NCBI GenBank assembly: GCA_964467035.1 | Contig: CAYXNX010000001.1 | Location: 51,373-115,372, forward strand | Direction of reading: 5' to 3' | DNA: 64,000 nt | Source: Candidatus Woesearchaeota archaeon | GTDB taxonomy: Archaea > Nanobdellota > Nanobdellia > Pacearchaeales > GW2011-AR1 | In this document: one piece after another, positions 8,402 through 43,357 of the stretch | Layout: each line of letters starts with the position of its first letter | How positions within the stretch are numbered: position 1 is the first letter of the stretch | Notes under the pieces: model-generated | Told to the model about the DNA's origin: nothing | The model's database searches: none | The model's input: only the letters and a program-made list of their open reading frames with translations | Made by a program: the position numbers and the translations under genes

Positions 8402-8445
8402 GTTAATTTGAGGTAATTAAATTATTTAAGTTTAACTATAAAAAA

Positions 8446-9042
8446 TCAGTCATTTACAATAGGCACAAAAACAAAATTCTGAAACTCTTGAATTTTATTC
8501 TCCCCTGATTCCTTTTTAACAACAACAATAGAATCTCTAACAGGAGCAACTAAAACTCCCTTAAATTTTAAATTATTATTAACTAAATCACTTGGGAATT
8601 CATCGAAAGCTGCACTTACTAAAATTCTATCAAATTTTTCATCACCAATTTTCTTCAATGCATTTCCACAATTTATCTCAATATTTTCATAATTTTTCAA
8701 TTTTTCTTTAGAACTTTGCACCAATTCGCTTATTCTTTCAATACCTAAAATCTTTCCATTTTTATTCAGTTCACTTAACAAAGCTAAAACATAACCACTT
8801 CCAGAACCAACTTCCAAAATCTTATCTCCCTCCTCAACTTCCAACAAAGTAAGCATAAAAGCAATAGTATAAGGTTGAGAAATCGTCTGTCCTCCAAAAA
8901 TTGGTAAAGGCACATTTTTATATGATTCTTCCTTTAACTCAGGTGAAACAAACAAACTCCTATCTACTTTTTCAAAAGCATCCATAATTTTATCTGGAAA
9001 ATTAAATTTCTTCAATTCCTTAATCATATTTTCTTTATTCAT
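8446..9042 (-). CDS. pcm: protein-L-isoaspartate O-methyltransferase
   Basis: ISQPYTIAFMLTLLEV..ILEVGSGSGY SAM-binding motif. Confidence 0.8.
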   Translation of the reverse strand: MNKENMIKELKKFNFPDKIMDAFEKVDRSLFVSPELKEESYKNVPLPIFGGQTISQPYTIAFMLTLLEVEEGDKILEVGSGSGYVLALLSELNKNGKILGIERISELVQSSKEKLKNYENIEINCGNALKKIGDEKFDRILVSAAFDEFPSDLVNNNLKFKGVLVAPVRDSIVVVKKESGENKIQEFQNFVFVPIVND

Positions 9043-9268
9043 TTTAATCCAAAGTATTTAACACAAAAAAATATTTAACACACAATTATGCAAATAACAA
9101 AGACCCCCAAATTTTAAGTAATTTTTGGTTTTAGATTCAAACAAATAAAATCAAAATCAGTCAAAGAAAAAAGGAATTAAGATAATTAAAACAAAAATTC
9201 CAAATTTTTAATAAACCAAAAATTATTTAATAATAACTATCCAAATACATAAAGGTAATCAAATAAAA

Positions 9269-9829
9269 ATGAAGTTTACAATTTGCAAAAAAATATTTGG
9301 AAAATATTCTGTCCAAGATTCTTCTGGAAAAAATTTATTTTTTTGCAAAAGAAAATTCCCTCTTTTTTGGAGATATAAGTTTATAGATTCAAATAAAAAA
9401 GAAATTTTTTCAATAAAAAGAAAAAAATTTTCATTTGCCTACGAAATTTATGAGTTAAAAAAAGAAAATAACAATTATGCAAAAGTGATAAAAGAACCAG
9501 CATTCAATATGCTTTTTCCAACAATCCCGTTAGGAGTAAATAAAAAATCAAACGACTTAACAATAGCAAAGATAAAAAAACAAAAAGGGACAACAATCAA
9601 AATGAATGCTAAAAATTTGATACAAGAAAATTATCAAGCAGATTTTATCCAAGAAGGCAAAACTATTGCAAAATCAAAAAAAATATTGGGATTAAAAGGA
9701 GTAACAAAACTATATGATGTTGAGATTATTAAAAGTCAAGATACTCCATTAATTTTTGCTAGCTTAATTATAATGGATATTATGTCAAAAAATACTAAAA
9801 AAACTCAAACAGCATGCAATCAGGCATAA
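9269..9829 (+). CDS. LURP-one-related / DUF567 (tubby-like fold) protein
   Basis: pattern FSIKRKKFSFAYEIYELKKENN.. resembles LOR family. Confidence 0.35.
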   Translation: MKFTICKKIFGKYSVQDSSGKNLFFCKRKFPLFWRYKFIDSNKKEIFSIKRKKFSFAYEIYELKKENNNYAKVIKEPAFNMLFPTIPLGVNKKSNDLTIAKIKKQKGTTIKMNAKNLIQENYQADFIQEGKTIAKSKKILGLKGVTKLYDVEIIKSQDTPLIFASLIIMDIMSKNTKKTQTACNQA

Positions 9830-9935
9830 GAATTGGGGGAAGAAAATAAAATAAAAATTCACTGAACAATACTACTTCCAATAAAATCTATTAATTCTAA
9901 ACTCCCCCCAACTATTAAAGAGAAGTGTGATACTT

Positions 9936-9953
9936 TTTCAAAGCGCCCCGACC
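9936..9953. repeat. attL-like 18-bp direct repeat tttcaaagcgccccgacc (copy of tRNA-Asp 3' end)
   Basis: exact match to 19792..19809. Confidence 0.7.
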
Positions 9954-9970
9954 GCACGTCATGAATTTGT

Positions 9971-11431
9971 TTAACGCTCTTTTTGTTTTAGTTTATTTAA
10001 TTTATTGAATCCCTCCAATAATTCTTTTATTTCTTTCTGAGCCTCTTCAATGATGGCTTTGCTTTCTCTATAATTAACTTCTTTCTCTTTCTCTTTCCGA
10101 TATCTATTAATTGATAAATCCCATCCTTTTTCTTTTATTTCTTCAAAAGGAACAAAGAAATGTTTTTCAAATCTGTCCTCGTTGCATTCATTGAATCTTT
10201 TTTTAAATCTCTCTAAAACATCAGGAATATCATTCTTTTCTATAGGATTTCTTTTATCATCTAAACTAAATCCATCATTTTCCATTTTGTAAAACCAAAC
10301 TTTTTCTGTAGGTTCTCCTTTTGTGAAGAATAAAACTGCAGTTGAAACTCCTGCATATGGCTTAAATACTCCCGAAGGCATAGATATAACTGCATCTAAT
10401 CGACACTCTTCTAATAACAGCTTTTTAACTGACTTATGAGCATTAGAATTACCAAATAAAACGCCTTCTGGAACAATTACAGCACATCTTCCACCAATAT
10501 TCAGAGAATTATACATAAGCTGTAAAAAAAGCAACTCTGTTTTGCTTGTGCTTATTGTTAAATCATCAGATTTCTCGCTTTGATTTATAGATCCCTTAAA
10601 TGGAGGATTTGCTAAAATTAAATCATAAATTCCTTTTTCATCATATCTTTTTGATAGAGTATCTTCTCCAATTATATTTGGATTAGTAATTCCGTGCATC
10701 ATTAAATTCATAACTGCAATTCTAACCATTGTTCTATCAATATCATAACCATAAAGGGATTCTTCATCCAATATTTTCTTTTTCTGATAAGTTAAGGTGC
10801 TAATACCATTTTTTTTATTTGTTTTTAATATGTGTTCATAAGCATTGACTAAAAATCCAGCAGTTCCACAGGCAGGATCTAAAATTCTATCACCAAATTC
10901 TGGTTTTGAGAGTTCAACCATCATCTTAATTATGTGTCTTGGAGTTCTAAATTGTCCATTCTTACCAGCAGTTGTTAATTCAGACAAAAGATATTCATAA
11001 ATATCTCCTTGTGTATCTTGGTTTTGTTCTTTTATATGTAAATCGTTGATAATATTAACTGCCTCAATTAAAAGCGAAGCAGTTGGTAATGAAAATGTAG
11101 CATCTTTCATATAATTATTATAATGTGAATTATTTCCTCCAAGGGTTCTCATAAAAAGAAATACTCTATCTCGAACATGAGGCAATATTTTGTCAGCAGG
11201 GTATTCACTCCAAACAGACCACTTACAATCTTCATTTCCCTCAAAAATAGATTTGTGTTTAATTCCCTTTAATCTTGCGTTTTGCTCTTCCCAAATGTCT
11301 CTGTCTTCAAGCTTTTTCATAAAAATTAAGTAGGATATTTGCTCAATTGCCTGAAGAGGATTACTAATTCCTCCGCTCCAAAATTTATCCCATAATTTTC
11401 TTATTTTTGATTTAAGTTCTGTGTGTAACAT
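9971..11431 (-). CDS. hsdM: type I restriction-modification system methyltransferase subunit
   Basis: N6-adenine MTase motifs DPACGTAGFL and NPPF. Confidence 0.9.
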   Translation of the reverse strand: MLHTELKSKIRKLWDKFWSGGISNPLQAIEQISYLIFMKKLEDRDIWEEQNARLKGIKHKSIFEGNEDCKWSVWSEYPADKILPHVRDRVFLFMRTLGGNNSHYNNYMKDATFSLPTASLLIEAVNIINDLHIKEQNQDTQGDIYEYLLSELTTAGKNGQFRTPRHIIKMMVELSKPEFGDRILDPACGTAGFLVNAYEHILKTNKKNGISTLTYQKKKILDEESLYGYDIDRTMVRIAVMNLMMHGITNPNIIGEDTLSKRYDEKGIYDLILANPPFKGSINQSEKSDDLTISTSKTELLFLQLMYNSLNIGGRCAVIVPEGVLFGNSNAHKSVKKLLLEECRLDAVISMPSGVFKPYAGVSTAVLFFTKGEPTEKVWFYKMENDGFSLDDKRNPIEKNDIPDVLERFKKRFNECNEDRFEKHFFVPFEEIKEKGWDLSINRYRKEKEKEVNYRESKAIIEEAQKEIKELLEGFNKLNKLKQKER

Positions 11432-11433
11432 GT

Positions 11434-12591
11434 TTATTGTGTTTCCTCTTTGTTTAAATCAGAGAGTGGAACCTTAAATACCTTTATAATACTTTTACAT
11501 TCATCTATGAGTTGTTGATAATTTTTTACTTGGATATTATGTAAATATTGGTTAAAAAGTTCAATAAAATCTTGCGGTTCTTTTCCGACTATTACCAAAC
11601 CAAACTGAATTCTATTACCTTCTTTTTTAGATTCCATGTAATGTATTAATTGAGAGATTGCTCTCCCAACTTGTGCTCCTATTGCATCTCTTTTTCTTTG
11701 TTTTACAATTGTTTTTGAAGAAGGAAGTTTCAACTCTATAAATATGTCCTTTCCTCTTTGAGATTTAAAACGGGAAACCCAAAGATCAATGTACCCTTTC
11801 TTATCTTTTCCAAATTTAACTTCAACCTCTTTTTCTAAATTAAATTGGCTAATATTTTGATATTTAAAATCAATAATCCAAATATTATTTTTAAGTTCAT
11901 CTCTTAATTCATCTTCAGAAATCTTCGGATTATTAACTTTTTCTTCAAATTCTTTTAATTTTTCTTCATAATAGGGAATATTCGTATGCAATTGGTTATG
12001 ATAATAATTCATAAACCCTGTAAATATTCTTGATGCTGTTTGTGGATCATTTTGTGGCAAATTCTCCATTATATCGTCAGGAGAAATATATTTTTTATTT
12101 TCTTTTTTAGTGTGTTTTAAATCTATCCAATCATTTATTATGTCTTCTTCTTCAGATGTGAGATCCTTAACAAGAAATAATCTTATTCGTTTATATTTAT
12201 CTGAAAAAGTTTGGATAAATTTCCTAAATCTTAATATATTAACTATTAAAATTTTTTTCCCATTTGAGAGAGTTTTATATTTAAAATTCCTGCTTATAGT
12301 TCGTGATACAATTAAATAATCAATTTCTTCTGAAACTAAATCAAATAAAGGAGTATGTGGGCCAATAATACTTGGGCCTGCTTTATTGGGCGTAAAATCG
12401 CATAAGACACTTCCAAAAGTTGTTTTACTTGTCCAATAAGGCTTAACAAAAATATTTAATTCATTTGCTATCATTCTGATAGTGGATTTAAGATATTTCT
12501 CACATCTTTGTTTAATATATTTGAGTGCAGTGGTATTGGAATACATCTTTTCAAGATCTCCTTTACGTATCCTTTGAAAATAATAACCCAT
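11434..12591 (-). CDS. uncharacterised protein with C-terminal PD-(D/E)xK nuclease-like motif (Shedu/DUF4263-like?) between hsdM and hsdS
   Basis: GYIDLWVSRFKSQRGKDIFIELKLPSSK then QVGRAISQLIHYM; position typical of defence insertions. Confidence 0.3.
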   Translation of the reverse strand: MGYYFQRIRKGDLEKMYSNTTALKYIKQRCEKYLKSTIRMIANELNIFVKPYWTSKTTFGSVLCDFTPNKAGPSIIGPHTPLFDLVSEEIDYLIVSRTISRNFKYKTLSNGKKILIVNILRFRKFIQTFSDKYKRIRLFLVKDLTSEEEDIINDWIDLKHTKKENKKYISPDDIMENLPQNDPQTASRIFTGFMNYYHNQLHTNIPYYEEKLKEFEEKVNNPKISEDELRDELKNNIWIIDFKYQNISQFNLEKEVEVKFGKDKKGYIDLWVSRFKSQRGKDIFIELKLPSSKTIVKQRKRDAIGAQVGRAISQLIHYMESKKEGNRIQFGLVIVGKEPQDFIELFNQYLHNIQVKNYQQLIDECKSIIKVFKVPLSDLNKEETQ

Positions 12592-12592
12592 C

Positions 12593-13717
12593 TTACAATT
12601 CCCCCCTAAATGCTTTACTAATAAGAGAATTAAATAATTCTTCAGAATTTTGTTTAGTTTTGTTTATTTGTTCTTTCATTTTTTCAACTTGTTTAACAAT
12701 AAAGGCAAATTTTTGTTGGAGAGGAAGGGGGGCATCTATAAAATTAATTCTGTAAACATCATTCCTGTTTAAGCCAGGTATTGCCGTAGAACTATTTAGT
12801 TTTAAGTTATAAAATTTTAATAAATAATACAAATATGCAAGGTCCATTTTCTTTAAGGGTTTTACATAATAAGTTGTATCAATAGCCCAAAAATTTTCTT
12901 TAGAATAATTAACCTCTCCTATTGACCCCTTTCTTCCTATGATTATTCCAGGACCTTCAATTAAAAATTTTGAATGTTTTCCCACAATTCCGTTAGACCC
13001 ATAAACAGGATATTTTCCCCCATCTCTTTGTTTTTCAGATAAACCTTTTCCATATGTTAATTCAAATAATTCTTTTCCTGTTTTTTCTTCAAACTCCTTA
13101 TTATAAAACATTTCATAAAAAACACTTTTCAAATATTCATCAAGTAATTCCTCTGCTTTTTCGCTTTTGTTAGTTAATTCCTCTGCTTTTTCTAAAAGTT
13201 TGACAATTCTTTCTTGTTCTTGCAAGTCTGGTTTGCCGTTGGAGAAAGGAATAGGTATTTTTATTGATTCAAATCTCCCTTTAGTTATGTGTTTCATAGT
13301 TGAGCCATGACTTTCTTTTAAGAAAAGATGAATAGTTTTTTTAACAAAATAATAAAGATATTTTTTATAAATAGATTCTTTTTTTGGAACAACCTTAAAG
13401 ATATGCTGATTTAACCAACCCTCTTCTTTATCCCATAAAAACGCATCTAATGTTGCAGACCATGAAATTAACAAGTCGCCTTTCTTAACAAGATATTTTT
13501 TATCAAAAGTTTTAGTTGTATAATTTGGATTAGTGATTGATCCAGTTAAATCCTGAATTCTAATTATTAATTTTCCTTTTGATTCCCATTCAAAAGGTTT
13601 GAATGCCCTACCATTTACAAATTGAGCTACATCTTTAAGTTCCAGTTCTTTCCATTCAGTTTTATTTTTTTGTATTTGTTGTTTCATTTTCTTTTTTCTT
13701 TTTCTGTTGAAATTCAT
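12593..13717 (-). CDS. hsdS: type I restriction-modification specificity subunit
   Basis: LKDVAQFVNGRAFKP target-recognition domain opening; coiled-coil spacer; two TRD halves. Confidence 0.8.
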   Translation of the reverse strand: MNFNRKRKKKMKQQIQKNKTEWKELELKDVAQFVNGRAFKPFEWESKGKLIIRIQDLTGSITNPNYTTKTFDKKYLVKKGDLLISWSATLDAFLWDKEEGWLNQHIFKVVPKKESIYKKYLYYFVKKTIHLFLKESHGSTMKHITKGRFESIKIPIPFSNGKPDLQEQERIVKLLEKAEELTNKSEKAEELLDEYLKSVFYEMFYNKEFEEKTGKELFELTYGKGLSEKQRDGGKYPVYGSNGIVGKHSKFLIEGPGIIIGRKGSIGEVNYSKENFWAIDTTYYVKPLKKMDLAYLYYLLKFYNLKLNSSTAIPGLNRNDVYRINFIDAPLPLQQKFAFIVKQVEKMKEQINKTKQNSEELFNSLISKAFRGEL

Positions 13718-14852
13718 AATTTCTTGTAGTTATATTTTCTATTATTTTAACAAGTTCAATGATTAACCTTTTCGCTCTTTCTTTGTCTATGTCGGTTTTT
13801 ACAATACTTCTTAATGCAGGAAGTTTTTCTGCAGTTGTGTAAGTGGGCTTAGGTTTTTCTTTTCCAGTTAAATCTACCAAATAAACAGGAACAACTACTT
13901 CAGAAATTATTTTGTGCCAATTAGAATGAATATAATTATTTCTTATAAATTCTCTTAATTGGTGTAAATACTTTTTTTCCTCTCCAGAAATATATTTCTC
14001 TACACAACAATCATTAATTAAATCAGACAATTCTCCTTCATAATGATTTCTTTTTTTATAATACCATATTTCTTTTAAAAAAGATTCAATAAAAATAGAT
14101 AACATACAAACAGAGGCATTAAAATTTCCAAACCAATAATTACTTATAGTTTCATAGTATAATGATTTATTTTCTGGTTCAAGATGAATTTTAGTTTCTA
14201 ATAGAGGTAATTCTCTAATTCTCTCTAAAATTTCTTCTTTTTTATTAAGAAAAGATTTGTAAATTTCCTCAGCCTCCTCCTTTTTTAAAAAATATTCTTC
14301 ATTCTTTATTTTTCTTTTGTTGAAATGTTCAGACCTATCCATTAGTTCATTTAATTCGTTAATTGCTTCGTCTATATGTTTTATAGCATCCGAATCTTCT
14401 TCATATCCTTCCTTTAACATTTTTTCTTTTTTGTACAAAAATCTATCTCTTTGAAAAATAAGATTTGTGTATGAAACAAATTTAGAAGGGTTTTCTACTG
14501 CATCTAAATTAAAATTATTTTCTAAATCTTGGAAATACTTAGCAAATTTGTAAATATTATTATTCTCATCTTTAAACGATTGAAATAATCTTGAATTGCC
14601 TCTATGTTCCGAAAACTCCTTACGGCTAATAATTTTTTTGTCATATAAAAAATCCAATAATGTTTGAATATCGCATTCATTTTTTATTTCTCTTGCGAGA
14701 TAATGATAGAGATTACTTTTATTATTAACAAAAAGTTTATCAAAACTCCCTTTTATTTCTTTTTTTAAATCTTCAAACTCTTTTTTAAGTTTTTCAAATT
14801 GAAATGTTATTTTTTCTGGTTCTGAAAATTTATCTTTATTCTTCTTGTCCAT
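13662..14852 (-). CDS. uncharacterised 396-aa protein with HEPN-like Rx4H motif (Abi-like) between hsdS and hsdR
   Basis: C-terminal FIRNNYIHSNWH; helical Lys/Glu-rich N-terminus. Confidence 0.3.
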   Translation of the reverse strand: MDKKNKDKFSEPEKITFQFEKLKKEFEDLKKEIKGSFDKLFVNNKSNLYHYLAREIKNECDIQTLLDFLYDKKIISRKEFSEHRGNSRLFQSFKDENNNIYKFAKYFQDLENNFNLDAVENPSKFVSYTNLIFQRDRFLYKKEKMLKEGYEEDSDAIKHIDEAINELNELMDRSEHFNKRKIKNEEYFLKKEEAEEIYKSFLNKKEEILERIRELPLLETKIHLEPENKSLYYETISNYWFGNFNASVCMLSIFIESFLKEIWYYKKRNHYEGELSDLINDCCVEKYISGEEKKYLHQLREFIRNNYIHSNWHKIISEVVVPVYLVDLTGKEKPKPTYTTAEKLPALRSIVKTDIDKERAKRLIIELVKIIENITTRNYEFQQKKKKENETTNTKK

Positions 14853-14853
14853 T

Positions 14854-15081
14854 TTAATTCTCTTTTCCTAAATTCAATATTTTAAATAAAATTCCGTATA
14901 TTCCTGAAATTTCTGCTATAAAAAAACACAGGATAAGCAAAGGATGTAACCAGCCATAGCCAGAAAGGGTTGGTATACCTTCTAAAGACTCTCTCAAAAT
15001 TTGAGTAAAAGAAAATGATAGATTTATTATTAATGCTAATATGCTACTTATTAAAATTTCAATTTGCGTTTTTTGTTCCAT
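14854..15081 (-). CDS. small two-TM membrane protein
   Basis: 75 aa, two hydrophobic helices; overlaps neighbours by 1-4 nt. Confidence 0.4.
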   Translation of the reverse strand: MEQKTQIEILISSILALIINLSFSFTQILRESLEGIPTLSGYGWLHPLLILCFFIAEISGIYGILFKILNLGKEN

Positions 15082-15716
15082 TATTGTGGTCTCCCATGAA
15101 TTTTTTCTTTAACTACTTCATCAAAAAATTTATCCACTCCAAAAGTTGATATCTTTTTATTTGTAATGAATGCTTTTGTTGAATCTTTAGAAATATAATC
15201 TACTAATGATTTTCCTGTATTATGAGTACAATGCAACAAAGCAATAAAATCTTTCTTTGGAGATTTTTCAAATTCGCAGTAATAAGCCATTTCTTTATTA
15301 TTCAACTTTATCCCGTGTCTATTTCCATGACCAATTAAATATATTACCCTTGCTTTAGGATTATTAATTATTTTTTTAAGATTTGCTCTATCAGTATTAA
15401 AATATATCTTATATGCCCAATTTTTCTTCCTAAAAAATTTAACTAATTTTTTCAAATTTTGTCTATAAATTAGTAATTTTTCAGGCATGTAATCATTACA
15501 TAAGATTATTGCAATATGATTTTTATTAGAATTTAATTCAAAATTTTTATGTAAATAATACCATTGTGGTAAGATGAATATAGAAAATGCAGGAACAAAT
15601 AAATAATTAATAATAAAAGTTCCAATTTTAAGATAAAGCCATGCAATCCCCATGTAAATAAAAAAGGCTAAAACAATTAAATGCAAATTAGTCAAAATCC
15701 AAGATAGCAAACTCAT
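15081..15716 (-). CDS. membrane-anchored minimal caspase-like (clan CD, His/Cys dyad) protein
   Basis: two N-terminal TM helices; IAIILCNDY strand, IYLIGHGNRHG (His motif), ALLHCTHNTG (DxCHSG-like Cys motif). Confidence 0.3.
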   Translation of the reverse strand: MSLLSWILTNLHLIVLAFFIYMGIAWLYLKIGTFIINYLFVPAFSIFILPQWYYLHKNFELNSNKNHIAIILCNDYMPEKLLIYRQNLKKLVKFFRKKNWAYKIYFNTDRANLKKIINNPKARVIYLIGHGNRHGIKLNNKEMAYYCEFEKSPKKDFIALLHCTHNTGKSLVDYISKDSTKAFITNKKISTFGVDKFFDEVVKEKIHGRPQ

Positions 15717-15886
15717 TCTTCATCCTCCAAATCAATCTCTTTTCTTACCATTTCTCTCAGTTTCTCATTTATAGACTTCTCCTCTTTTTCACAGAGTTTT
15801 TTTAACAGAAGAAATTCACTTTTATACAATCTTGTAGAAACAATCTTCCTCTCTTCCCCGCTTAAAGGATTATCTTTTATTACCAT
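15713..15886 (-). CDS. ribbon-helix-helix (CopG/Arc-like) protein, 57 aa
   Basis: MVIKDNPLSGEERKIVSTRLYKSEFLLLKKLCEKEEKSINEKLREMVRKEIDLEDEE; ATGA overlap with caspase-like gene; not in ORF track. Confidence 0.45.
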   Translation of the reverse strand: MVIKDNPLSGEERKIVSTRLYKSEFLLLKKLCEKEEKSINEKLREMVRKEIDLEDEE

Positions 15887-15947
15887 TAAAGATGTCAGAT
15901 AATTAGAGTATTTAAATCTTTTCTAAAAACCTGTATACACCTTTTGA

Positions 15948-16304
15948 CTAGTTATATTCCAAAATTTCTTTCTTTGGCTCCTTATGTCCAAGGCTAAGAG
16001 TTAAAGGAATTGATATATTTGCTTCTTTTCCTGCTTTTTTGAAAGTAACTATCAATAACACATAAACATGGTTTGTTTTATAATTAATTGACATTTTAAT
16101 GCTTTTAATTGATTTTAAAGTGTTCTTGTCTATGCCTAAATTTTCACTTGCATCCATTATCTCAATACCACATATAAAGTTATTGCGGTTTACGTCAAGA
16201 ACAAAATCCCCAATATCTATGGATACCCTTGCCTTTTCCCCATTATTTATAAAGAATATATCATTCTCAAAATCATAATCTATTGTTTTAATCTCTCTTG
16301 CCAT
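15948..16304 (-). CDS. DUF2283-family protein (antitoxin-like partner of DUF4258)
   Basis: YDFENDIFFINNGEKARVSIDIGDFVLDVNRNNFICGIEIMDASENLG. Confidence 0.5.
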   Translation of the reverse strand: MAREIKTIDYDFENDIFFINNGEKARVSIDIGDFVLDVNRNNFICGIEIMDASENLGIDKNTLKSIKSIKMSINYKTNHVYVLLIVTFKKAGKEANISIPLTLSLGHKEPKKEILEYN

Positions 16305-16588
16305 TTTCTATCACTATTCCAAGCACTTATAACTTTTAAATCTTTTGAAACAACGATTTCAATTATCAATACTAAAGAGTATTTTCTACTCATTTTAAAC
16401 CAAAGTTTAAATCTATCTTCTGTTTTTCCTTTTTCAATCTTTTCCAATTTATTTATTTGTGATAAAAAACTTCTCACCATGCTTTCGCTTATAGGTCTTT
16501 CACCCATTTTTTTGTAAAAATGAGGGTCAAAACTTACATTGTTTTGATTAAGATTTTCAAGGAATTTTTTAACTTCTTTCATTTCCAT
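16280..16588 (-). CDS. DUF4258-family protein (toxin-like)
   Basis: FDPHFYKKMGERPISESMVRSFL resembles DUF4258 H..ER..R.I motif; overlaps DUF2283 gene. Confidence 0.45.
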   Translation of the reverse strand: MEMKEVKKFLENLNQNNVSFDPHFYKKMGERPISESMVRSFLSQINKLEKIEKGKTEDRFKLWFKMSRKYSLVLIIEIVVSKDLKVISAWNSDRKWQERLKQ

Positions 16589-19329
16589 TTTAACCCATTA
16601 CATTTTTGAACTATTTTTTCAAGCTGTTTTTTAGTGAAAGAATCCAGAGGTCTTGCATCTGCAAGAGGATGCTCAGCAAGATTTTTTAATTCAATATGCT
16701 TTGCTCTTACAAAAACTTGTTCTAATAATCTTAAAAATTTCAATTGCTGAGAATTATAATGTTCATTTTTATCCATAACAAATTTATCAAATTCCCATTT
16801 AATCATCTCTTGAGGATCTGGCAATCCCTTTATATCTAATAATTCTCTTAAAAAAGAAATAAAATCTTTAGTCTGTTGAATATTCTCAATAGTCAAAGAA
16901 GGATTTAATTCTCTAAGTTTCTTTTCTATTCGGATAATCTCTTTTGGTGTAACTCCCTCGCCATTTTTTATTTTTTGCATAAGAGGATCGCTGTTAATAA
17001 AATAACTAAAATCTTCATCTTCTTTAACCTGCATCATTTCTTTTTCAACTTTAACTACTATATCTGGAGCATCTATTTTTAACATTTTCTTTCTTTCTTT
17101 TTCATAAAAAATCATGAGAGGGGCAATATCTCTAACTAAAAAATCAACATCTTCAAAAGTAATCTCTTCCCAGAATTGTTCTTTTTGGATTCTAATCAGA
17201 TCATCTTTTTTCTGTCTTACAGCATCAAGATTCTTATCCCAAATCGCTTCTGCCCTTTCAACTACATACTCCTGAACTTTTGCTATTTTATCATTATTCT
17301 CTGTTTTGATATAATCAAACAATTTAACACATTGGGAAATAAAACTATACACTTTTGTGTTCTCAGAAGGAGAATAAATTAACAAAGGGGCTATCTCATC
17401 TTTCAATTCTTTTATATGTTCTTTTAAATCAAATTTAGATGAAATAACTTTTTTAATAATCCCTTTCTTTTCTACCACCATAGGAGATTCTATGTCTATT
17501 TTTTTAACAGTATCTTTTATTTGCTTTTCAAGTATTCTTTTCTCTTTTTCATTAAGATTTTTTTCTAGAGTATCAACTTGTTCTAAGAATATTCTTGTTT
17601 TTGCATCTAAAGTTGGGGTTTTATGATTTAAATCTTGTAATTTGTGAACAAGTATATTTGAGTAGTCTCCAAATTTAAAATCAAGAATTAAAAAATTGTC
17701 TTTTATGTGTTGACCTTCATTATTTGTCGGAAGCCATTCTTTGTTTTCACATGCTGAGAAATTTCTGGTTCCTCTACCCAACATCTGCCAAAATCGTATA
17801 GAAGACATAACAGGTTTCACGAAAACTAAATTCATTACTTCAGGAATATCCACTCCTGTATCTAAAACACCGACAGATAAAGCAATTCTTGGACTATCTC
17901 TTTTTCCAAATCTTTTAACTTCGTCCATATAGCGTGCCCTGTCTGAAGTAATTACTTTAATTTCTTTTGCTAATGTAGGATAAAGTTTCTGGAAAAGAGC
18001 TTCTATAGATTCAGCGTGTTTAATGCTCGCACAAAAGAAAATGCTTTTACAAGGTCTTTTATCATCTGATTTATAACACCTTTCCATAAACTCTCTAATT
18101 ATTAACTCATTTGTCCTTTTATCTGTAAATAATCTTTCAAATTTAGAACCTGGAGTTTGGAAGCGTTCAGGATCTTCTTCCTGGACTTTTAACTTTTGTT
18201 GCAATTCCTTACTTAATGTTTTACCCTCTATTCCTAAAGAAAGGATTTTTGTTTCAATAATCTCTGAAACATATGGTGCTAAAACGCCATCTCTCACTGC
18301 AGAAAGATAATCATACTTATATGTTGGTTTTTTATTTTCACAACCAAATAATTCATAAGTGTTCCTCGAATCTTCAAAAGAAGGCGTGGCAGTAAGACCA
18401 ATTTTTATAGCATCAAAATACTTAAAGATATCATTATTTTTATCATAATAAGATCTATGTGCTTCATCAAAGATTATTAAGTCAAATGCTCCAGGACCAA
18501 ATTTCTCATAAAATTTTCCTCTTGGTTTTTGAGGAGACATCAGTGTTTGAACTGTAGAAACATAAAATCTTGCACTATCTGAGAAACCCTCTATGTTTAA
18601 CTCACAAACTGGAGTTTCAGGAAAGAATTTTTTAAAGCCTTTTTCTTTTGCTTGATTAGATAAAGAAATTCTATCAACTACAAATAAAACTTTTTGAACA
18701 TTTTCTGTTTTTACTAAACAATCAATTAAAGCCATAGCAACCCTTGTTTTTCCTGTTCCAGTAGCCATATTAATAAGAGCCCTTTTATGGCCTTGAAAAA
18801 TATGCTCTAAAATTACCTTAACAGCTTCAACCGCCCTTTTCCTGTCAAGGATATCTGATCTAATCTTAGAATTAACAGGATTTTTTCTTTTTTTCATCAA
18901 ACTAACAATTCTATGCAAATCTTTTTGTGAAAAAGGTAATGTGATTTTTCTTCTCCTGTCTAAATCATCTACATAATACCAACTTGTTCCATTTGTGAGA
19001 AAAATAGGGATTTTTATTTTGATTTGCTTTTCAATATCATTTCTATAAGTTCTTGCTTGGATTTCTCCTTTTTCAACGCTAACAGATGTTTTTTTTGCTT
19101 CAATAATTGCCAAAGGTGTTCTATCCTCATCTAATAATAAATAATCTATAAATCTATCAATTCCTTTTTCTATCCCTAATCCAATACCAAAATATTCCTT
19201 AGTTTGAAAATTAGATTTAACAGGATTTATTTCTTCTTTTACATAATGTCCTTTAACTTTCCATCCTGCTCTTTCTAAAATAGGATCAATTAATTTTTTT
19301 CTTGTTTCTTTCTCAGATATTTTATCCAT
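16579..19329 (-). CDS. hsdR: type I restriction enzyme R subunit
   Basis: N-terminal nuclease domain, helicase motifs NMATGTGKT and DEAH, 916 aa. Confidence 0.9.
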   Translation of the reverse strand: MDKISEKETRKKLIDPILERAGWKVKGHYVKEEINPVKSNFQTKEYFGIGLGIEKGIDRFIDYLLLDEDRTPLAIIEAKKTSVSVEKGEIQARTYRNDIEKQIKIKIPIFLTNGTSWYYVDDLDRRRKITLPFSQKDLHRIVSLMKKRKNPVNSKIRSDILDRKRAVEAVKVILEHIFQGHKRALINMATGTGKTRVAMALIDCLVKTENVQKVLFVVDRISLSNQAKEKGFKKFFPETPVCELNIEGFSDSARFYVSTVQTLMSPQKPRGKFYEKFGPGAFDLIIFDEAHRSYYDKNNDIFKYFDAIKIGLTATPSFEDSRNTYELFGCENKKPTYKYDYLSAVRDGVLAPYVSEIIETKILSLGIEGKTLSKELQQKLKVQEEDPERFQTPGSKFERLFTDKRTNELIIREFMERCYKSDDKRPCKSIFFCASIKHAESIEALFQKLYPTLAKEIKVITSDRARYMDEVKRFGKRDSPRIALSVGVLDTGVDIPEVMNLVFVKPVMSSIRFWQMLGRGTRNFSACENKEWLPTNNEGQHIKDNFLILDFKFGDYSNILVHKLQDLNHKTPTLDAKTRIFLEQVDTLEKNLNEKEKRILEKQIKDTVKKIDIESPMVVEKKGIIKKVISSKFDLKEHIKELKDEIAPLLIYSPSENTKVYSFISQCVKLFDYIKTENNDKIAKVQEYVVERAEAIWDKNLDAVRQKKDDLIRIQKEQFWEEITFEDVDFLVRDIAPLMIFYEKERKKMLKIDAPDIVVKVEKEMMQVKEDEDFSYFINSDPLMQKIKNGEGVTPKEIIRIEKKLRELNPSLTIENIQQTKDFISFLRELLDIKGLPDPQEMIKWEFDKFVMDKNEHYNSQQLKFLRLLEQVFVRAKHIELKNLAEHPLADARPLDSFTKKQLEKIVQKCNGLKWK

Positions 19330-19370
19330 ATTATTTGAAGAGAATCATGATATAAAAACTTATTTCTAAT

Positions 19371-19736
19371 TTATTTTACCCTAAATGCAGACTCAAGAAT
19401 CATTTTCCCAGAATCAGATATAATATATAGCTTTCCTTTTTTAGATTTTGGATTCAAACACTTTTTTGTTTCAGCAGACCATTCTTTTTGTTCAATCTCT
19501 GCAACAACTCTTCTTAAATCTTCTTTTGTTGCTTTTTCAAAGGGCTTATTTAGAATTAAAGCAAAAGTTCGAATATCTAACATATATCTTCCAATTTTAG
19601 CGACGCCAATTCCTTCACTTAAAAGATAATCTCTGAATTTAATACACGATTGTTTATTCTTAGCAGAAATTTTGTTATTTGACTTAATAAGCTCAACATT
19701 TCTTTCAAGCTGTCTTTTGTAGTTATGTATATCCAT
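19371..19736 (-). pseudogene. tyrosine recombinase/integrase N-terminal (SAM-like core-binding) domain only; catalytic domain missing
   Basis: 121 aa with A-T--i--fr-yl-----s--ti--yl-d-r-F pattern; ORF stops 41 nt before hsdR start. Confidence 0.5.
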
Positions 19737-19791
19737 TACTCATTTAACGTCCCAAGGGAGTAATAAAGGACATTGATGAGCGTTATCAAAA

Positions 19792-19809
19792 TTTCAAAGC
19801 GCCCCGACC
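19792..19809. repeat. attR-like 18-bp direct repeat overlapping tRNA-Asp 3' end
   Basis: exact match to 9936..9953. Confidence 0.7.
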
Positions 19810-19871
19810 GGGAATCGAACCCGGGACTCAACCGCGACAGGGTTGTATTATAACCACTTAACTACCAGGGC
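19800..19871 (-). tRNA. tRNA-Asp (anticodon GUC)
   Basis: hand-folded cloverleaf: acceptor GCCCUGG/UCGGGGC, D stem GUUA/UAAU, anticodon stem CAACC/GGUUG, loop CUGUCGC, T arm CCGGG-UUCGAUU-CCCGG. Confidence 0.85.
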
Positions 19872-20321: not shown

Positions 20322-20443
20322 GAGCCCATAGCTCAGTCAGGTTAGAGCGCTGGTCTTATATGGCTACAATTCATTAGGATTGTTGTTCTCTAAGGATGAC
20401 CTAAGAGAGCCAGAGGTCCCCGGTTCGAATCCGGGTGGGCTCA
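20322..20443 (+). tRNA. tRNA-Ile (anticodon UAU) with 47-nt intron at canonical 37/38 position (intron 20361..20407)
   Basis: exons fold as acceptor GAGCCCA/UGGGCUC, D stem GCUC/GAGC, anticodon stem CUGGU/GCCAG, loop CUUAUAA, T arm CCCGG-UUCGAAU-CCGGG; intron ends pair with the exon anticodon-loop region. Confidence 0.7.
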
Positions 20444-20583
20444 GAATTAAGGGGAACTTCGCGAATCAAAGATTCGCGGCGTGAGGTCCCCGGTTCGAAT
20501 CCGGGTGGGCTCAGAATTAAGGGGAACTTCGCGAATCAAAGATTCGCGGCGTGAGGTCCCCGGTTCGAATCCGGGTGGGCTCA
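20414..20583 (+). repeat. 3 tandem copies (period 70 nt) of tRNA-Ile 3' portion (variable loop+T arm+acceptor 3' strand) separated by identical 40-nt hairpin spacer
   Basis: aggtccccggttcgaatccgggtgggctca x3; spacer contains cgcgaatc-aaa-gattcgcg hairpin. Confidence 0.8.
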
Positions 20584-20590
20584 GAAAAAA

Positions 20591-20983
20591 ATGATAAAAT
20601 TATTCGCAATTACTTTTTTTGGAACATTCATCGTAACTAGAATTATTACAACATTATTCCATGATTTTAATTGCACTAAACTAAAAAAAGACAAATCAAA
20701 AACACTTACAGGAATTATTAGAAAAAAATCAGGCCGAGATATTCCCCATATACATTTTGGATTTTTAATTTTAATCTTAACTTTAATTATTTATTTATTA
20801 AGCAAATTTGAAATAATTTTATTTGCTATTGGCTCAAGTCTTATATTAGATCAATTAATTCCTTGGATAAGTTTAAAATTTAATTTTATTCAAAAAATAG
20901 ACTATTTTAAAATTAAAGGAATTTTGTCCACCATAATCTTGCACATTTTATTTTTTATTTTAATTTTATATTTTTCTAAATAA
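20591..20983 (+). CDS. polytopic small membrane protein
   Basis: 130 aa, 3-4 TM. Confidence 0.4.
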   Translation: MIKLFAITFFGTFIVTRIITTLFHDFNCTKLKKDKSKTLTGIIRKKSGRDIPHIHFGFLILILTLIIYLLSKFEIILFAIGSSLILDQLIPWISLKFNFIQKIDYFKIKGILSTIILHILFFILILYFSK

Positions 20984-21023
20984 CTTTCCAAACATTTAAA
21001 TAGAATGTTTATTTTATTCTTTT

Positions 21024-21293
21024 ATGCCAAAGAAAAAGGTTGCAAAAAAGAGTGTGAAGAAAAGTTCTAATAAATCTAACAAAAAAATTGCAAGTAAAAA
21101 GACAAATAAAAAAACAGCCAAATCTTTTAATAAAAAACAGACAGATTCTCAATCAATCTTAGGAGCTTTCATAGCAACTTTTTTCAGTTTAATTGGAGCA
21201 GTAATTTCTTTATTAATCTGGCACAAAAACGAATATGTTGTTTTTTACGCTAAACAATCTTTAATTTTATTTCTCATTGCCTCATTGCATTAG
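21024..21293 (+). CDS. Lys-rich N-terminus plus TM protein; apparent frameshift, reading continues in another frame to 21397
   Basis: frame shifted by 2 nt after 21290 reads ALVLSIFSGLVLWIPIIGWGIGVVLQIFVIILWVLT*. Confidence 0.35.
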   Translation: MPKKKVAKKSVKKSSNKSNKKIASKKTNKKTAKSFNKKQTDSQSILGAFIATFFSLIGAVISLLIWHKNEYVVFYAKQSLILFLIASLH

Positions 21294-21647
21294 TTTTATC
21301 AATATTTTCCGGATTAGTATTATGGATACCAATCATTGGATGGGGAATCGGCGTAGTTTTACAAATTTTTGTAATCATCCTTTGGGTTTTAACATAGATT
21401 TATTCTTTATCTGGAGAAAAAAGAAAAATTCCTTTTATTAGAGTCTTTATGAGATAATTTTTTAAAAATATTAAAGTTAAAATAGTTGTAGGATTAATCA
21501 AAAACCTGAAAAATTTAAAAAATTCTCAAACAATTAAAACTCCCAAAATTTAAAAAGATAGTTAGATTTAAAAACTATTTTGCGATTTATTTTTTAGATG
21601 CTTTGGATAATTCCTCCAGGAATTTTCTAAAAGAAATCAAAGTCTTT

Positions 21648-21720
21648 GCCCCTGTGGTGTAGCGGTCAAGCATAGAGCCCTTTCGAGGCTCTGACCCGGG
21701 TTCGAGTCCCGGCGGGGGCA
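21648..21720 (+). tRNA. tRNA-Glu (anticodon UUC)
   Basis: acceptor GCCCCUG/CGGGGGC, anticodon stem GAGCC/GGCUC loop CUUUCGA, T arm CCGGG-UUCGAGU-CCCGG. Confidence 0.85.
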
Positions 21721-22143
21721 TTTAAAGATAAGGATTGAACAAAGTGAAATCCTTCTTTCTCCGAGAACTTCTGAGAACTCTGCTTGACAATTTCAATGAA
21801 AGGGAAGTTAAATGTTAAGAAACCATAGGGGTCATACAAGTTCGAGTCCGAGCAATTTTGCGAGTGGAGGAAAACAAGGGGTGAATCAAGGCGAGCAGGG
21901 TTGCGAGAAGGCGGGGGCATTTAAAGATAAGGATTGAACAAAGTGAAATCCTTCTTTCTCCGAGAACTTCTGAGAACTCTGCTTGACAATTTCAATGAAA
22001 GGGAAGTTAAATGTTAAGAAACCATAGGGGTCATACAAGTTCGAGTCCGAGCAATTTTGCGAGTGGAGGAAAACAAGGGGTGAATCAAGGCGAGCAGGGT
22101 TGCGAGAAGGCGGGGGCATTTAAAGATAAGGATTGAACAAAGT
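21721..22143 (+). repeat. 2.1 tandem copies of a 199-bp unit immediately after tRNA-Glu; each unit ends with the tRNA 3'-terminal 10 nt ggcgggggca
   Basis: 21721..21919 and 21920..22118 identical; third partial copy to 22143; contains degenerate T-loop-like gttcgagtcc. Confidence 0.8.
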
Positions 22144-31665: not shown

Positions 31666-32054
31666 AATTTCAGTTTTACAAATTTTTTCAATTTATTAAT
31701 TAACTCTTTCATCAAAAATTCATTCCTATCTAAATAATCTTTATCAATAAAAAATCCTTCATAAGATACCCTATTTCTTAAAACTCTAAGGTCATTAAAA
31801 AAATGATTATAACTCCTAAATTCCGAATATTTATCAACTAAATAGTCAAATAATTCTTTATGACTTAAAGTTTTGTAACCGTCAATCAACAAAACAGAGG
31901 TAGCTAATTCTTTTATAATTTCATAATAATCTGAAATAATTAAAGCAGACATTTTTTCCTTATTTTGAAGTTTAATTCTATCCTCAATTAAATTTATCAT
32001 TTTCAAAATACTTTTTGCTCTTTCTTTATCCGGAGTTATTTTTATCAAACTCAT
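31662..32054 (-). CDS. HEPN-domain protein (partner of MNT), R-N-x-x-x-Y variant motif
   Basis: RVLRNRVSYEG. Confidence 0.5.
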   Translation of the reverse strand: MSLIKITPDKERAKSILKMINLIEDRIKLQNKEKMSALIISDYYEIIKELATSVLLIDGYKTLSHKELFDYLVDKYSEFRSYNHFFNDLRVLRNRVSYEGFFIDKDYLDRNEFLMKELINKLKKFVKLKL

Positions 32055-32596: not shown

Positions 32597-32628
32597 TTAT
32601 ATTGCTTAAAGTATATAAATGTTTCTAC

Positions 32629-43355: not shown

Positions 43356-43357
43356 AA

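Follow-up and report, generated by a model that had tools for sequence, protein, structure and literature searches.

The 64,000-nucleotide stretch of a Candidatus Woesearchaeota archaeon analysed here (the window) carries, at the end of its tRNA-Ile(UAU) gene, a short array in which a segment of the tRNA 3' part (A) alternates with a spacer (x) in the order A-x-A-x-A, and a second array of like topology follows at tRNA-Glu. With a probability of about 0.55, these arrays are read as att-type duplications that were left by site-specific integration at tRNA 3' ends, the inserted body having been lost and the repeat units having then been changed by unequal recombination or slippage. The Ile array, whose host is a Pacearchaeota/Woesearchaeota-like DPANN archaeon, most likely varies in a small way the known theme of DNA integration into tRNA 3' ends, rather than representing a novel RNA system.

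Architecture of the two arrays

The Ile locus comprises the following features, all on the forward strand:

20322..20443, + strand, complete tRNA-Ile(UAU) gene (5' exon 20322-20360, intron 20361-20407, 3' exon 20408-20443)
20413..20446, + strand, A1, 34-nt block spanning tRNA positions 43-73 plus GAA, within the functional gene
20447..20482, + strand, x1, 36-nt spacer TTAAGGGGAACTTCGCGAATCAAAGATTCGCGGCGT with 50% GC versus 30% in the genome, hairpin at 20460-20478
20483..20516, + strand, A2, 100% identical to A1
20517..20552, + strand, x2, 100% identical to x1, hairpin at 20530-20548
20553..20586, + strand, A3, followed directly by the original downstream flank

The parent gene scored 59.8 bits with the Rfam tRNA model, and ARAGORN, run with introns enabled, returned the anticodon tat and the intron (40,47), which is the canonical 47-nt intron; the orthologues align accordingly. 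A motif scan recovered ctggt-CTTA-[TAT]-gg / cc-TAAG-[AGA]-gccag as the splicing motif. Tandem Repeats Finder reported positions 20413-20586 with a period of 70, 2.5 copies, 100% matches, no indels and a score of 348, in agreement with the layout A-x-A-x-A (174 nt = 2x70+34). The tRNA-Ile 3' segment GGTTCGAATCCGGGTGGGCTCA occurred exactly three times (20422, 20492 and 20562) and the core of x exactly twice (20447 and 20517), and both were absent from 100 of 100 dinucleotide shuffles. A preliminary description of this DNA had proposed three copies of a 30-nt tRNA segment with a 70-nt period, separated by an identical 40-nt spacer. Copy number, period and spacer identity were retained, while the repeated block was extended to 34 nt; since this identical block runs from G43 to the discriminator A73 plus GAA, the unique spacer is 36 nt long. 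The GC-rich spacer hairpin of that description, CGCGAATC-AAA-GATTCGCG, was found in both units (20460-20478 and 20530-20548), with a folding energy of -12.1 kcal/mol and z = -2.7. Derivation of x from an intron or from a tRNA-like anticodon arm was rejected, as direct reading revealed no U33, complementary stem or intron similarity. Beyond the array, the gene for a 130-aa membrane protein starts with an ATG at 20591, 5 nt past A3. No oligo-T run follows tRNA-Ile before position 20626, so that transcription probably runs on through the extra A copies within the 3' trailer.

The second array is located 1.1 kb downstream of the first:

21647..21721, + strand, tRNA-Glu(UUC), parent gene of the second array
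21711..22143, + strand, array A'-x'-A'-x'-A', period 199, 2.2 copies, 100% identity

Its total length of 433 nt corresponds to 2x199+35. The 35-nt block A' consists of the last 10 nt of tRNA-Glu and 25 nt of flank, and the spacer x' comprises 164 nt with a GC content of 44%, so that both x and x' are GC-rich against the 30% GC genome. An exact copy of the T-loop decamer of tRNA-Glu, GTTCGAGTCC, which was reached by none of 500 shuffles, is contained in x' and would fit an older nested remnant. Three further candidates in x' were discarded: the degenerate pattern GGGTTGCGAG..GGCGGGGGCA as a T-arm remnant, which beyond the exact 10-nt end was matched by 105 of 500 shuffles; the similarity of the GCGAG-rich part to the region after the copy in lineage L212, which scored 24 against a shuffle maximum of 28 and was not significant; and an open reading frame across x', which was considered spurious and had no match in a protein-level search of 5.8 billion proteins.

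Comparison with related lineages

Orthologous loci, whose comparison had been suggested as a check, were retrieved only with a pattern degenerate at two variable positions, the window's own A sequence having no match in the JGI metagenomes. The A-x architecture recurred in a sister strain represented in three of these metagenomes (L204, L205 and L206), with the layout A-x-A(-x-A)-y-A*. Two x units were present in L204 and one each in L205 and L206, in contigs that are otherwise 99.9-100% identical. The tRNA-Ile 3' site of this strain thus holds both x (36 nt, GC-rich) and y (50 nt, AT-rich), and its y-A* segment is absent from the window. Between the window and L204, two positions of A differ, one of which is matched by a compensatory change on the 5' side of the acceptor stem (C6:G67 versus T6:A67), and all three to four A copies of each genome share that genome's own state, i.e. 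the copies have been homogenised.

Overall, the A-x architecture, with a hairpin at the same place, was found in three lineages, and the A-x-bearing lineages share only ~70-92% DNA identity. The hairpin is kept in L218, with one compensatory pair relative to the window, and carries a disrupting change in L204, where folding is no better than in shuffles (z = -0.4). The Ile insert is polymorphic for presence and absence among the relatives, with breakpoints at the repeat, and no copy of the tRNA-Ile 3' end was found in four related lineages (L211, L216, L219 and L220). A synteny search via the DEAD-box helicase yielded 80 loci with at most 64% identity, none of them with the tRNAs nearby.

Partial copies were compared across four lineages. 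Their 3' limits lie 0-6 nt past the discriminator, their 5' limits vary, and CCA is absent from all partial copies found. The repeats measure 34 nt from position 43 in the window and L204, 21-26 nt from the T loop in A* of L204-206, 14 nt in L212 and L218, and 10 nt also in L218. Duplications of 14-15 nt across the tRNA end occur in L208, L212 and L218; the 14-nt copy of L218 looks as if it had arisen from the 34-nt copy by deletion. Within 400 nt downstream, 11 of the 62 tRNAs tested (8 non-redundant) had a copy of their own 3' end, compared with 0 in the upstream control. Nearby copies of this kind are frequent in this archaeal group.

Proposed origin by site-specific integration at tRNA 3' ends

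An att-type origin of the A...A bracket is the best supported, because the partial copies end at the tRNA 3' end, because the sister strain carries a different spacer (y) with a copy running from the T loop to the end, and because a variable island with a fragment of an integrase lies next to the neighbouring tRNA-Asp. Across all lineages the arrays close with a copy of A and never with a spacer, a bracket topology that goes beyond simple duplication. A matches the 3' part of the tRNA and ends just beyond the gene, which is intact. Copies with a fixed 3' limit at the tRNA end and variable 5' limits are the classic signature of att identity blocks in tRNA genes (Reiter 1989 and Williams 2002, as cited in PMC9897764). 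Of the stacked att remnants invoked in the preliminary description, the att origin is favoured and the stacking is not: the two units are perfectly identical, contigs that otherwise share 99.9-100% identity differ in having one or two x units, and the copies are homogenised within each genome, all of which indicates that a single unit was duplicated by unequal recombination or slippage, rather than that two integrations took place.

As a first step, site-specific integration of DNA into the 3' part of tRNA-Ile would have occurred in an ancestor of at least three of the sampled lineages, regenerating the tRNA-Ile gene and leaving a second A beyond the insert. Integrative elements that target tRNA genes usually regenerate the gene in this way and duplicate its 3' segment. 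The inserted body would later have been deleted, with 36 nt (x) remaining, and a second event of like kind would have left y-A* in the sister lineage. Streptococcal cis-mobilizable elements are deletion derivatives that retain both att sites. In a second step, the 34-nt A copies, 36 nt apart, would mispair during replication or recombination, so that whole A-x units would be gained or lost, giving rise to A-x-A, A-x-A-x-A or possibly more units, with copies that stay identical to the working tRNA; we infer this gain and loss from the perfect identity, the differences in unit number and the homogenised copies. Finally, only the first copy is part of the functional tRNA, the remaining ones being passengers. 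The same process would have operated at tRNA-Glu, leaving the 199-nt array, and its full-size version would be seen at tRNA-Asp, in the form of an 11-kb island with an integrase fragment.

The tRNA-Asp site comprises the following features:

19799..19871, - strand, tRNA-Asp(GUC), at whose 3' end sister-strain homology stops exactly (L204 7170 = window 19800)
19371..19736, - strand, 121-aa open reading frame, integrase N-terminal SAM-like domain only, no catalytic domain
8442..19798, no strand assigned, strain-specific island bordering the tRNA-Asp 3' end, from the comparison of the window with the sister strain

At this site, an 11.4-kb defence island in the window is replaced by a 1.26-kb Fic gene segment in L204. 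The island encodes a type I restriction-modification system (HsdM, HsdS, HsdR), a Shedu-like nuclease, DUF2283, PCMT and a LOR-like gene. The 121-aa frame lies 63 nt downstream of tRNA-Asp and on its own gave nothing in Pfam, PHROGs or NCBIfam, reaching only 13.5 bits for Phage_int_SAM_1; its integrase SAM-like domain is visible only via homologues, of which P0003 and P0006 exceed the Pfam cut-off for Phage_int_SAM_1. Another homologue, P0005, is found 65 nt downstream of a tRNA-Glu in L208. The neighbourhood of the arrays is an integration hotspot. The Ile locus would accordingly be an instance of tRNA 3' ends acting as recombination hotspots even in the tiny genomes of DPANN archaea, where scars may be reduced to some tens of bases, survive in several lineages and vary in copy number.

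The arrays share with the attL/attR duplications of tyrosine-recombinase elements (PMC9897764) a direct repeat of the tRNA 3' part that ends at the gene end and leaves the gene intact, 5' limits at the variable loop, T loop or acceptor stem, and a variable island with an integrase fragment, here at a neighbouring tRNA. The length of 34 nt is within the usual range, an example of 44 bp being on record (PMC9897764). They differ in that the 'element' is only 36-164 nt long and non-coding, that the unit is in tandem with perfect identity and that the donor was not found. A second precedent is provided by the tycheposon islands of Prochlorococcus, in which partial tRNA copies downstream of the full gene mark successive events, remnants occur without integrase and tandem junctions vary within populations (bioRxiv 10.1101/2020.12.28.424599). 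Partial tRNA copies in a row and remnants that lack an integrase are common to both systems, but tycheposon remnants are of kilobase scale and mutually different, whereas the units found here are tiny and identical, which points to the duplication of one scar and not to repeated integration.

Neither a mobile element nor a complete integrase or excisionase was found between or beside the Ile or Glu repeats, whose inserts of 36 (x), 50 (y) and 164 nt (x') contain no open reading frame, and Pfam scans detected no integrase catalytic domain in any window frame of at least 200 aa. With no element between the repeats, the Ile locus is at most a degraded remnant and not an intact member of the att class. 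Exact matches to A, x and x' were absent from IMG/VR (x' was searched also as a 40-nt piece), and the Glu unit had no blastn match in phage or plasmid collections, which is a weak negative, as DPANN mobile elements are poorly sampled. Because none of A, x and x' turned up in virus, phage or plasmid records, the donor postulated here is hypothetical. The only match to the tRNA-Glu 3' end in IMG/VR was an unrelated high-GC phage tRNA-Arg, and the generic T-loop pattern GGTTCGAATCC-N30-60-GGTTCGAATCC gave at least 120 matches in viral contigs, which presumably represent ordinary phage tRNA clusters and were uninformative. Four further points weigh against an att origin. Shrinkage to exactly 36 nt with both att copies intact is possible, but would have been needed several times. 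In A', 25 of 35 nt come from the flank and not from the tRNA, an uncommon composition for an att identity block. The 34-/35-nt repeats of the window and the 14-15-nt repeats of L208, L212 and L218 are, by analogy, reminiscent of casposon target-site duplications. Lastly, A-x persists across lineages though deletion to a single A would be irreversible, and the hairpin is kept in L218, so that some selection may be at work; the degraded hairpin of L204 speaks against it.

Alternative explanations

Duplication of the 3'-end segment without any mobile element, in which replication of a strongly transcribed tRNA gene stalled, slipped or switched template and partial deletions followed, is an unlikely account of the arrays as a whole. 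It is consistent with the perfect, identical head-to-tail units of both window arrays and their variable copy number, the lack of an integrase or element at the Ile and Glu loci, and the Glu repeat block being mostly flank. It also has a counterpart at tRNA-Leu of L012, where an exact 2.0-copy, 100-nt tandem duplication that lacks the bracket structure begins inside the gene, 8-9 nt ahead of its end. However, tandem duplication predicts whole-number copies that finish with the unit end, whereas the Ile arrays of three lineages and the Glu array finish with the tRNA segment, with 2.49 and 2.18 copies in the window. Moreover, nothing in the flanks corresponds to x or y, all copies stop at the tRNA end on their 3' side, and one site accommodates two different inserts (x and y). 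Simple tandem duplication accounts for the amplification step, not for the origin of x.

Insertion by a casposase or Cas1-like enzyme through a staggered cut, in which A would be the target-site duplication and x the inserted fragment of a proto-CRISPR-like unit that was later duplicated, is very unlikely. For casposons, insertion at tRNA 3' ends with duplications of 14 nt, a 35-nt duplication in another casposon and tandem elements separated by a single common duplication have been described (PMC4779613). The loci studied here resemble them (PMC4779613) in their target, in duplications that are almost equally long in both window arrays (34 and 35 nt) and measure 14-15 nt in L208, L212 and L218, and in tandem units with one common duplication; the 34-nt repeat and 36-nt insert have CRISPR-like dimensions, and a staggered cut would also account for the Glu block being mostly flank. 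Set against this, the Pfam scans revealed no Cas1 or casposase in the window or L204, there is no polymerase, and direct reading of the inserts found no terminal inverted repeats. No fixed-length duplication was seen either: inserts range from 30 to 164 nt and duplications measure 10, 14, 15, 21-26 and 34-35 nt, so that no single ruler applies. In addition, the two identical x units are duplicated and not independently acquired, and the 14-nt copy of L218 looks like a product of deletion.

That the array is not a CRISPR array, as the preliminary description had stated, was confirmed: the two spacers are 100% identical, the repeat derives from a tRNA gene, and no cas family was found in Pfam scans of all open reading frames of at least 200 aa within the 64-kb window. 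The likeness is confined to the regular alternation of a 34-nt repeat and a 36-nt spacer, there being only a few units at most and no leader. L204 does have a third, different spacer, though one of 50 nt with a truncated repeat behind it. It would be a long shot to regard the exact ~14-15- and ~34-35-nt duplications as casposase/Cas1-like footprints, i.e. as DPANN proto-CRISPR units later expanded by recombination, or, in a milder variant, the x hairpin and spare acceptor strands as a 3'-trailer element under selection that governs how the tRNA and the downstream leaderless mRNA are released. If fixed-length Cas1-like target-site duplications were involved, the arrays would represent a natural intermediate for the proposed casposon-to-CRISPR transition.

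A function of the extra copies, either as spare 3' halves, as tRNA-like minihelices or as a structured 3' trailer by which the tRNA or the membrane-protein mRNA is controlled in its processing, is highly improbable. That three lineages retain A-x and the hairpin position, and that the window and L218 differ by one compensatory hairpin pair, would suit it, as would copies kept identical to the working tRNA, GC-rich x and x' in a 30% GC genome, probable transcription of the array in the absence of an oligo-T run between it and the tRNA, and, in the window, the lack of a TATA-like box ahead of the downstream gene. Split and tri-split tRNA genes are known from Nanoarchaeum equitans and Caldivirga maquilingensis, and a DPANN-type host and isolated 3' portions that follow GC-rich sequence are points of resemblance. 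Here, in contrast, the parent tRNA-Ile gene is complete, and the extra copies begin at G43, not at 38, 30 or 26, so that they lack positions 38-42, the 3' strand of the anticodon stem. They likewise have no promoter of their own: x is devoid of the TATA-like box TTTAAATA, which in all orthologues lies ~35 nt upstream of the real gene. No splicing (bulge-helix-bulge) motif joins the 5' exon to A2 or A3, motif counts being equal to those of shuffles, and nothing complementary to x, as leader or trailer, is present in the window with up to three mismatches. The transcribed 3'-half minihelices of split-tRNA type that the preliminary description had considered are therefore not borne out. A functional role of the copies is further disfavoured by the disrupted hairpin of L204, the lack of Rfam matches in x and x', and the four related lineages without any copy.

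Creation or miscounting of the repeat, or at least of its second x unit, by short-read assembly is barely credible, given that x and x' are unique sequences and necessarily derive from reads, that A-x-A is present in five assemblies from two lineages and two assemblers, that the x-A-x junction is present in two independent assemblies (the window and L204), and that assembly errors have no reason to begin inside tRNA 3' ends at two genes in several genomes. The Ile repeat structure is confirmed as genuine, beyond the artefact of any single assembler. Its unit count is another matter, as the source is a short-read assembly, in which units of 70 and 199 nt are not reliably countable, and L205 and L206 have one x where L204 has two. 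A-x-A-x-A is exactly the minimal path through the looped graph, i.e. the shortest one that uses all k-mers of any array with at least two x units, so that 'three copies' is a lower bound; the k=31 graph of Logan cannot separate one x unit from more. The Logan contigs of SRR11308339, from a second assembler, end and begin within A copies (window 20442 and 20557) and break at 21740 and 22114 in the Glu array. Such tRNA micro-arrays split short-read assemblies precisely at tRNA genes and are open to misreading as CRISPR arrays, split tRNAs or pseudo-tRNAs.

Tandem arrays at two neighbouring tRNA genes

Direct reading of the window revealed a perfect tandem repeat at the 3′ end of a tRNA-Ile gene (period 70, 2.5 copies, 100% identity, 0 indels), in which a tRNA-derived block, A, alternates with a spacer, x. 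The preliminary description of a tandem tRNA-Ile 3′-end repeat with a 70-nt period was thereby confirmed, as was its tRNA-Ile content, while the phase and the lengths of 30 and 40 nt given for block and spacer were corrected. None of 100 dinucleotide shuffles contained either motif. A second perfect array, not included in that description, was found at tRNA-Glu(UUC).

Features of the tRNA cluster (window coordinates)
19799–19871, minus strand: tRNA-Asp, third tRNA of the cluster
20322–20443: complete tRNA-Ile gene, its 3′ end being the first A
20413–20586: tRNA-Ile array, A-x-A-x-A
A: tRNA-Ile repeat block, 34 nt, GAGGTCCCCGGTTCGAATCCGGGTGGGCTCAGAA
x: tRNA-Ile spacer, 36 nt, TTAAGGGGAACTTCGCGAATCAAAGATTCGCGGCGT
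21647–21721: tRNA-Glu gene, 1.1 kb downstream of the tRNA-Ile array
21711–22143: tRNA-Glu array, A′-x′-A′-x′-A′, period 199, 2.2 copies

The tRNA-Ile gene (Rfam, 59.8 bits) was assigned anticodon TAT and a 47-nt intron by ARAGORN with intron detection. A bulge-helix-bulge scan located the canonical splicing motif ctggt-CTTA-[TAT]-gg / cc-TAAG-[AGA]-gccag, whose position places the intron at 20361–20407. A UAU anticodon in tRNA-Ile is already known from Nanoarchaeota. Block A corresponds to tRNA positions 43–73 plus 3 flank bases and comprises the last anticodon-stem base, the variable loop, the T arm, the acceptor 3′ strand and the discriminator. At tRNA-Glu, A′ (35 nt) consists of the final 10 nt of the gene and 25 nt of flank, and x′ (164 nt) contains the exact tRNA-Glu T-loop decamer GTTCGAGTCC, with a score that none of 500 shuffles attained. 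Two spurious ORFs, 21666–21920 and 21886–22119 (minus strand), have a common N-terminus owing to this array.

The window (GC ~30%) encodes the archaeal translation proteins eIF2-gamma and ribosomal protein S6e, and the identity of the neighbouring DEAD-box helicase to proteins from Pacearchaeota, Woesearchaeota and Nanoarchaeota genome bins does not exceed 64%; the host is a DPANN archaeon.

Counterparts in reads, a sister strain and other lineages

The same genome was found in the Logan assembly of run SRR11308339 (k = 31), in which contig breaks fall within the repeated blocks: one contig stops within the first A, at window 20442, a second corresponds to 20557–21740 and a third begins at 22114. 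The reads thus genuinely branch at A. The unit number is uncertain, A-x-A-x-A being the shortest path that covers all k-mers of any array with at least two x units. A 130-aa membrane-protein gene, its ATG 5 nt past the last tRNA-derived copy (window 20586–20593), yielded one homologue cluster among 5.8 billion proteins. This homologue (92% identity) is encoded on three JGI metagenome contigs, L204–L206, which are orthologous loci of a sister strain with DNA 70–92% identical and gene order conserved. The array reads A-x-A-x-A-y-A* in L204 and A-x-A-y-A* in L205 and L206, where y is a 50-nt AT-rich spacer and A* a partial copy from the T loop to the end; outside the single 70-nt unit difference, the three are 99.9–100% identical. 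The structure is therefore genuine and predates the split of both strains. An assembly artefact is excluded for the structure, the exact unit count still being exposed to it, and L205 and L206, with their one x unit, may be real variants or the product of assembly collapse.

At tRNA-Glu, the sister strain carries a homologous, diverged and unduplicated version, in which the gene is followed by 132 inserted nt, alignable with x′ in their 3′ part, then by another GGCGGGGGGCA and by the shared downstream sequence. Both strains have a second splicing-like motif at tRNA-Ile (gctgg-TCTT-[ATA]-tggct / agcca-GAGG-[TCC]-ccggt; window 20354–20420, L204 7697–7757), which pairs the anticodon-arm region with the start of A and would remove 59 nt; it is probably a sequence by-product.

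Ten metagenome loci matched a degenerate tRNA 3′-end pattern, six of them orthologous intron-containing tRNA-Ile(UAU) genes from four distinct lineages (L216, L219 and L220 are the same sequence and one lineage); four of the loci were aligned with the window and L204. L218 has a 5′ exon identical to that of the window, and downstream of its tRNA come, in order, an x-like spacer (30 nt), a tRNA-end copy (14 nt), an AT-rich spacer (50 nt) and a further copy (10 nt). The x-like spacer has AACTTCGCG...CGCGG in common with x, a score reached by 0 of 1000 shuffles. A 46-nt spacer and then a 14-nt copy of the tRNA end are present in L212, and no tRNA-end copy was found in L211 or L216/L219/L220. In L218, the gene of an acidic Glu/Asp-rich protein (1118–1651, minus strand as fetched) follows the tRNA-Ile remnants and shares their orientation; in the window it precedes tRNA-Ile and has the opposite orientation, so the tRNA segment was inverted or moved relative to its neighbours.

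The tRNAs of all DPANN-type loci fetched were surveyed, a sample biased by the loci picked via tRNA-Ile: 11 of 62 genes (8 non-redundant) had at least their last 9 nt copied within 400 nt downstream, with ~0.1 expected by chance, and the upstream control gave 0 copies. Three cases are free of this bias.

Unbiased survey cases (contig coordinates)
L208, 14492–14620: tRNA-Gly(CCC), 40-nt spacer with hairpin AAAAATCTC-ag-AGATTTTT, 15-nt tRNA-end copy CCCGGCTGACGCATT
L012, 17055–17254: exact 2.0-copy tandem duplication of 100 nt, starting 8–9 nt before the tRNA-Leu(UAA) end
L025, 7250–7560: 3′ two-thirds of tRNA-Lys(UUU) on either side of a 100-N gap; partial 5′ copy ggctccgtagctcagcctggtaaggtgc 70 nt upstream

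The tRNA-Gly locus has the architecture of the window locus in miniature. The L012 duplication is whole-number, unlike the window arrays, and L025 may represent a further tRNA-anchored repeat that broke assembly, or a masked stretch. LAGLIDADG-like ORFs adjoin other tRNAs on the L208 contig; the L012 contig is labelled Dojkabacteria and encodes a helicase 58% identical to that of the window.

Origin of the arrays

Array lengths are not whole-number (174 = 2 × 70 + 34; 433 = 2 × 199 + 35) and arrays in every lineage finish with a tRNA-derived copy, not a spacer, which together indicate that the primary event put an insert between two tRNA-end copies. Such an arrangement is what integration with target regeneration leaves behind. 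All copies stop 0–6 nt past the discriminator, and their 5′ limits vary (position 43, T loop, T-stem/acceptor junction); this is how att identity blocks in tRNA genes classically look (summarised in PMC9897764). The copy ends, together with the absence of CCA from every copy, argue against retro-insertion of mature tRNA fragments. One strain carries two unrelated inserts, x and y, at the same site. The x units are identical within each strain and differ at 3 of 36 positions between strains, so the second unit is a recent duplication, not a second integration; of the stacked att remnants proposed earlier, the att-remnant origin was retained and serial integration was abandoned for the identical units. 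Block A differs at two positions between strains, one of them compensated in the single-copy 5′ acceptor strand, and all 3–4 copies per genome carry that genome's own state, a concerted evolution that fits repeated unequal exchange between copies 36–50 nt apart.

We favour, at slightly better than even odds (roughly 0.55), an att-remnant origin with the element body lost and the units amplified by unequal recombination. A mobile element would have integrated site-specifically at a tRNA 3′ end in an ancestor and later lost its interior, so that x, y and x′ are what is left between the att-type copies. Units would then have been gained, lost and homogenised as the 34-nt copies mispaired by strand slippage or recombined unequally, as unit identity, the unit-number difference and concerted evolution suggest. 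At present, the first copy alone would be functional. The rest is probably carried in a transcribed trailer, since tRNA-Ile has no run of at least 5 T on its 3′ side before the one at 20626–20632; T-runs lie directly 3′ of the gene in the array-free orthologues L211 and L216. The membrane-protein gene, which has no TATA-like box 5′ of it in the window, may share a transcript with tRNA-Ile and the array, and the AT-rich y spacer could be its promoter source in L204.

Searches of IMG/VR and of phage and plasmid collections, together with Pfam scans, yielded no donor element, attP or complete integrase. Most of the tRNA-Glu block is flank, an uncommon composition for an att block that counts against the att-remnant reading. 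The A-x structure persists across lineages ~70–92% identical even though an array reduced to a single A could not revert, and some selective value is possible. The analysis covered 64 kb of the host genome plus a small number of related contigs; the feature is of a known kind, unusual mainly in its miniature scale, tandem amplification and recurrence at neighbouring tRNAs.

Duplication without any mobile element accounts for L012 and hence for only part of the evidence, failing on the bracket topology and the foreign inserts. Casposons target tRNA 3′ ends with target-site duplications, which the 34/35-nt and 14–15-nt duplications echo (PMC4779613), but a casposon-like staggered-cut insertion has a low probability, given that no Cas1 was found in window ORFs of at least 200 aa (Pfam), the inserts are without terminal inverted repeats, duplication lengths spread over 10 to 35 nt, and the 14-nt copy of L218 resembles a deletion derivative of the 34-nt copy. 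The earlier suggestion of split-tRNA or spare 3′ halves was not supported: the tRNA-Ile gene is complete, the extra copies are missing positions 38–42, and the TTTAAATA box, located ~35 nt before the real gene in every orthologue, has no counterpart in x. Moreover, no splicing motif joins the 5′ exon to copies 2 or 3 (motif counts equal shuffle counts), neither x nor x′ has an Rfam match, and the envisaged partner complementary to x was absent from the window. The GC hairpin previously noted in the spacer is indeed strong in the window (−12.1 kcal/mol, z = −2.7), retained with one compensatory pair in L218 (z = −1.65) and broken in L204 (z = −0.4), a mixed pattern that hints weakly at function. 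A CRISPR array, already discounted, is dismissed by identical spacers and the lack of cas genes in any ORF of at least 200 aa (Pfam scans).

Defence island and other repeats

Homology between the window and the sister strain stops exactly at the tRNA-Asp 3′ end, next to a strain-specific island in place of which L204 has a 1.26-kb segment with a Fic gene.

Features of the island (window coordinates)
8442–19798: strain-specific defence island, 11.4 kb, bounded exactly by the tRNA-Asp 3′ end
9971–11431: HsdM (type I restriction-modification)
11434–12591: Shedu-like SduA_C/PD-(D/E)XK nuclease, between HsdM and HsdS
12593–13717: HsdS
15948–16304: DUF2283
16579–19329: HsdR
19371–19736, minus strand: 121-aa ORF, 63 nt downstream of the tRNA-Asp end
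Also within the island: protein-L-isoaspartate O-methyltransferase (PCMT) and a LOR-like gene

Homologues of the 121-aa ORF exceed the Pfam threshold for the integrase N-terminal SAM-like domain, the only domain in this family of short proteins (67–175 aa); no catalytic domain follows it in the 121-aa ORF. One homologue lies 65 nt past tRNA-Glu(CTC) in L208, an unrelated contig. These short proteins may be truncated integrases or a stand-alone family.

A miniature inverted-repeat element of ~150 nt, with terminal repeats GGCTTTGTTGAAAA...TTTTCAACAAAGCC, occurs at window 34860–35010 and at L204 5913–6068 and 8399–8555. The L204 copies, one bordering the variable island on its left side and one just past the membrane-protein gene, have flanking duplications of ~9 bp (TAAAATATG; TAACTTTC). 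An intergenic tandem repeat (45691–45844; period 44, 3.6 copies, 91% identity, C/A-rich on the plus strand) separates a nucleotidyltransferase gene from a 950-aa ORF. At least five winged-helix and nucleotidyltransferase (MNT-like) genes cluster at 32051–45573 with HEPN (39592–40065) and NYN (40839–41459) partners; they resemble toxin-antitoxin or defence modules. The gene at 41860–42732 encodes a DDE transposase.
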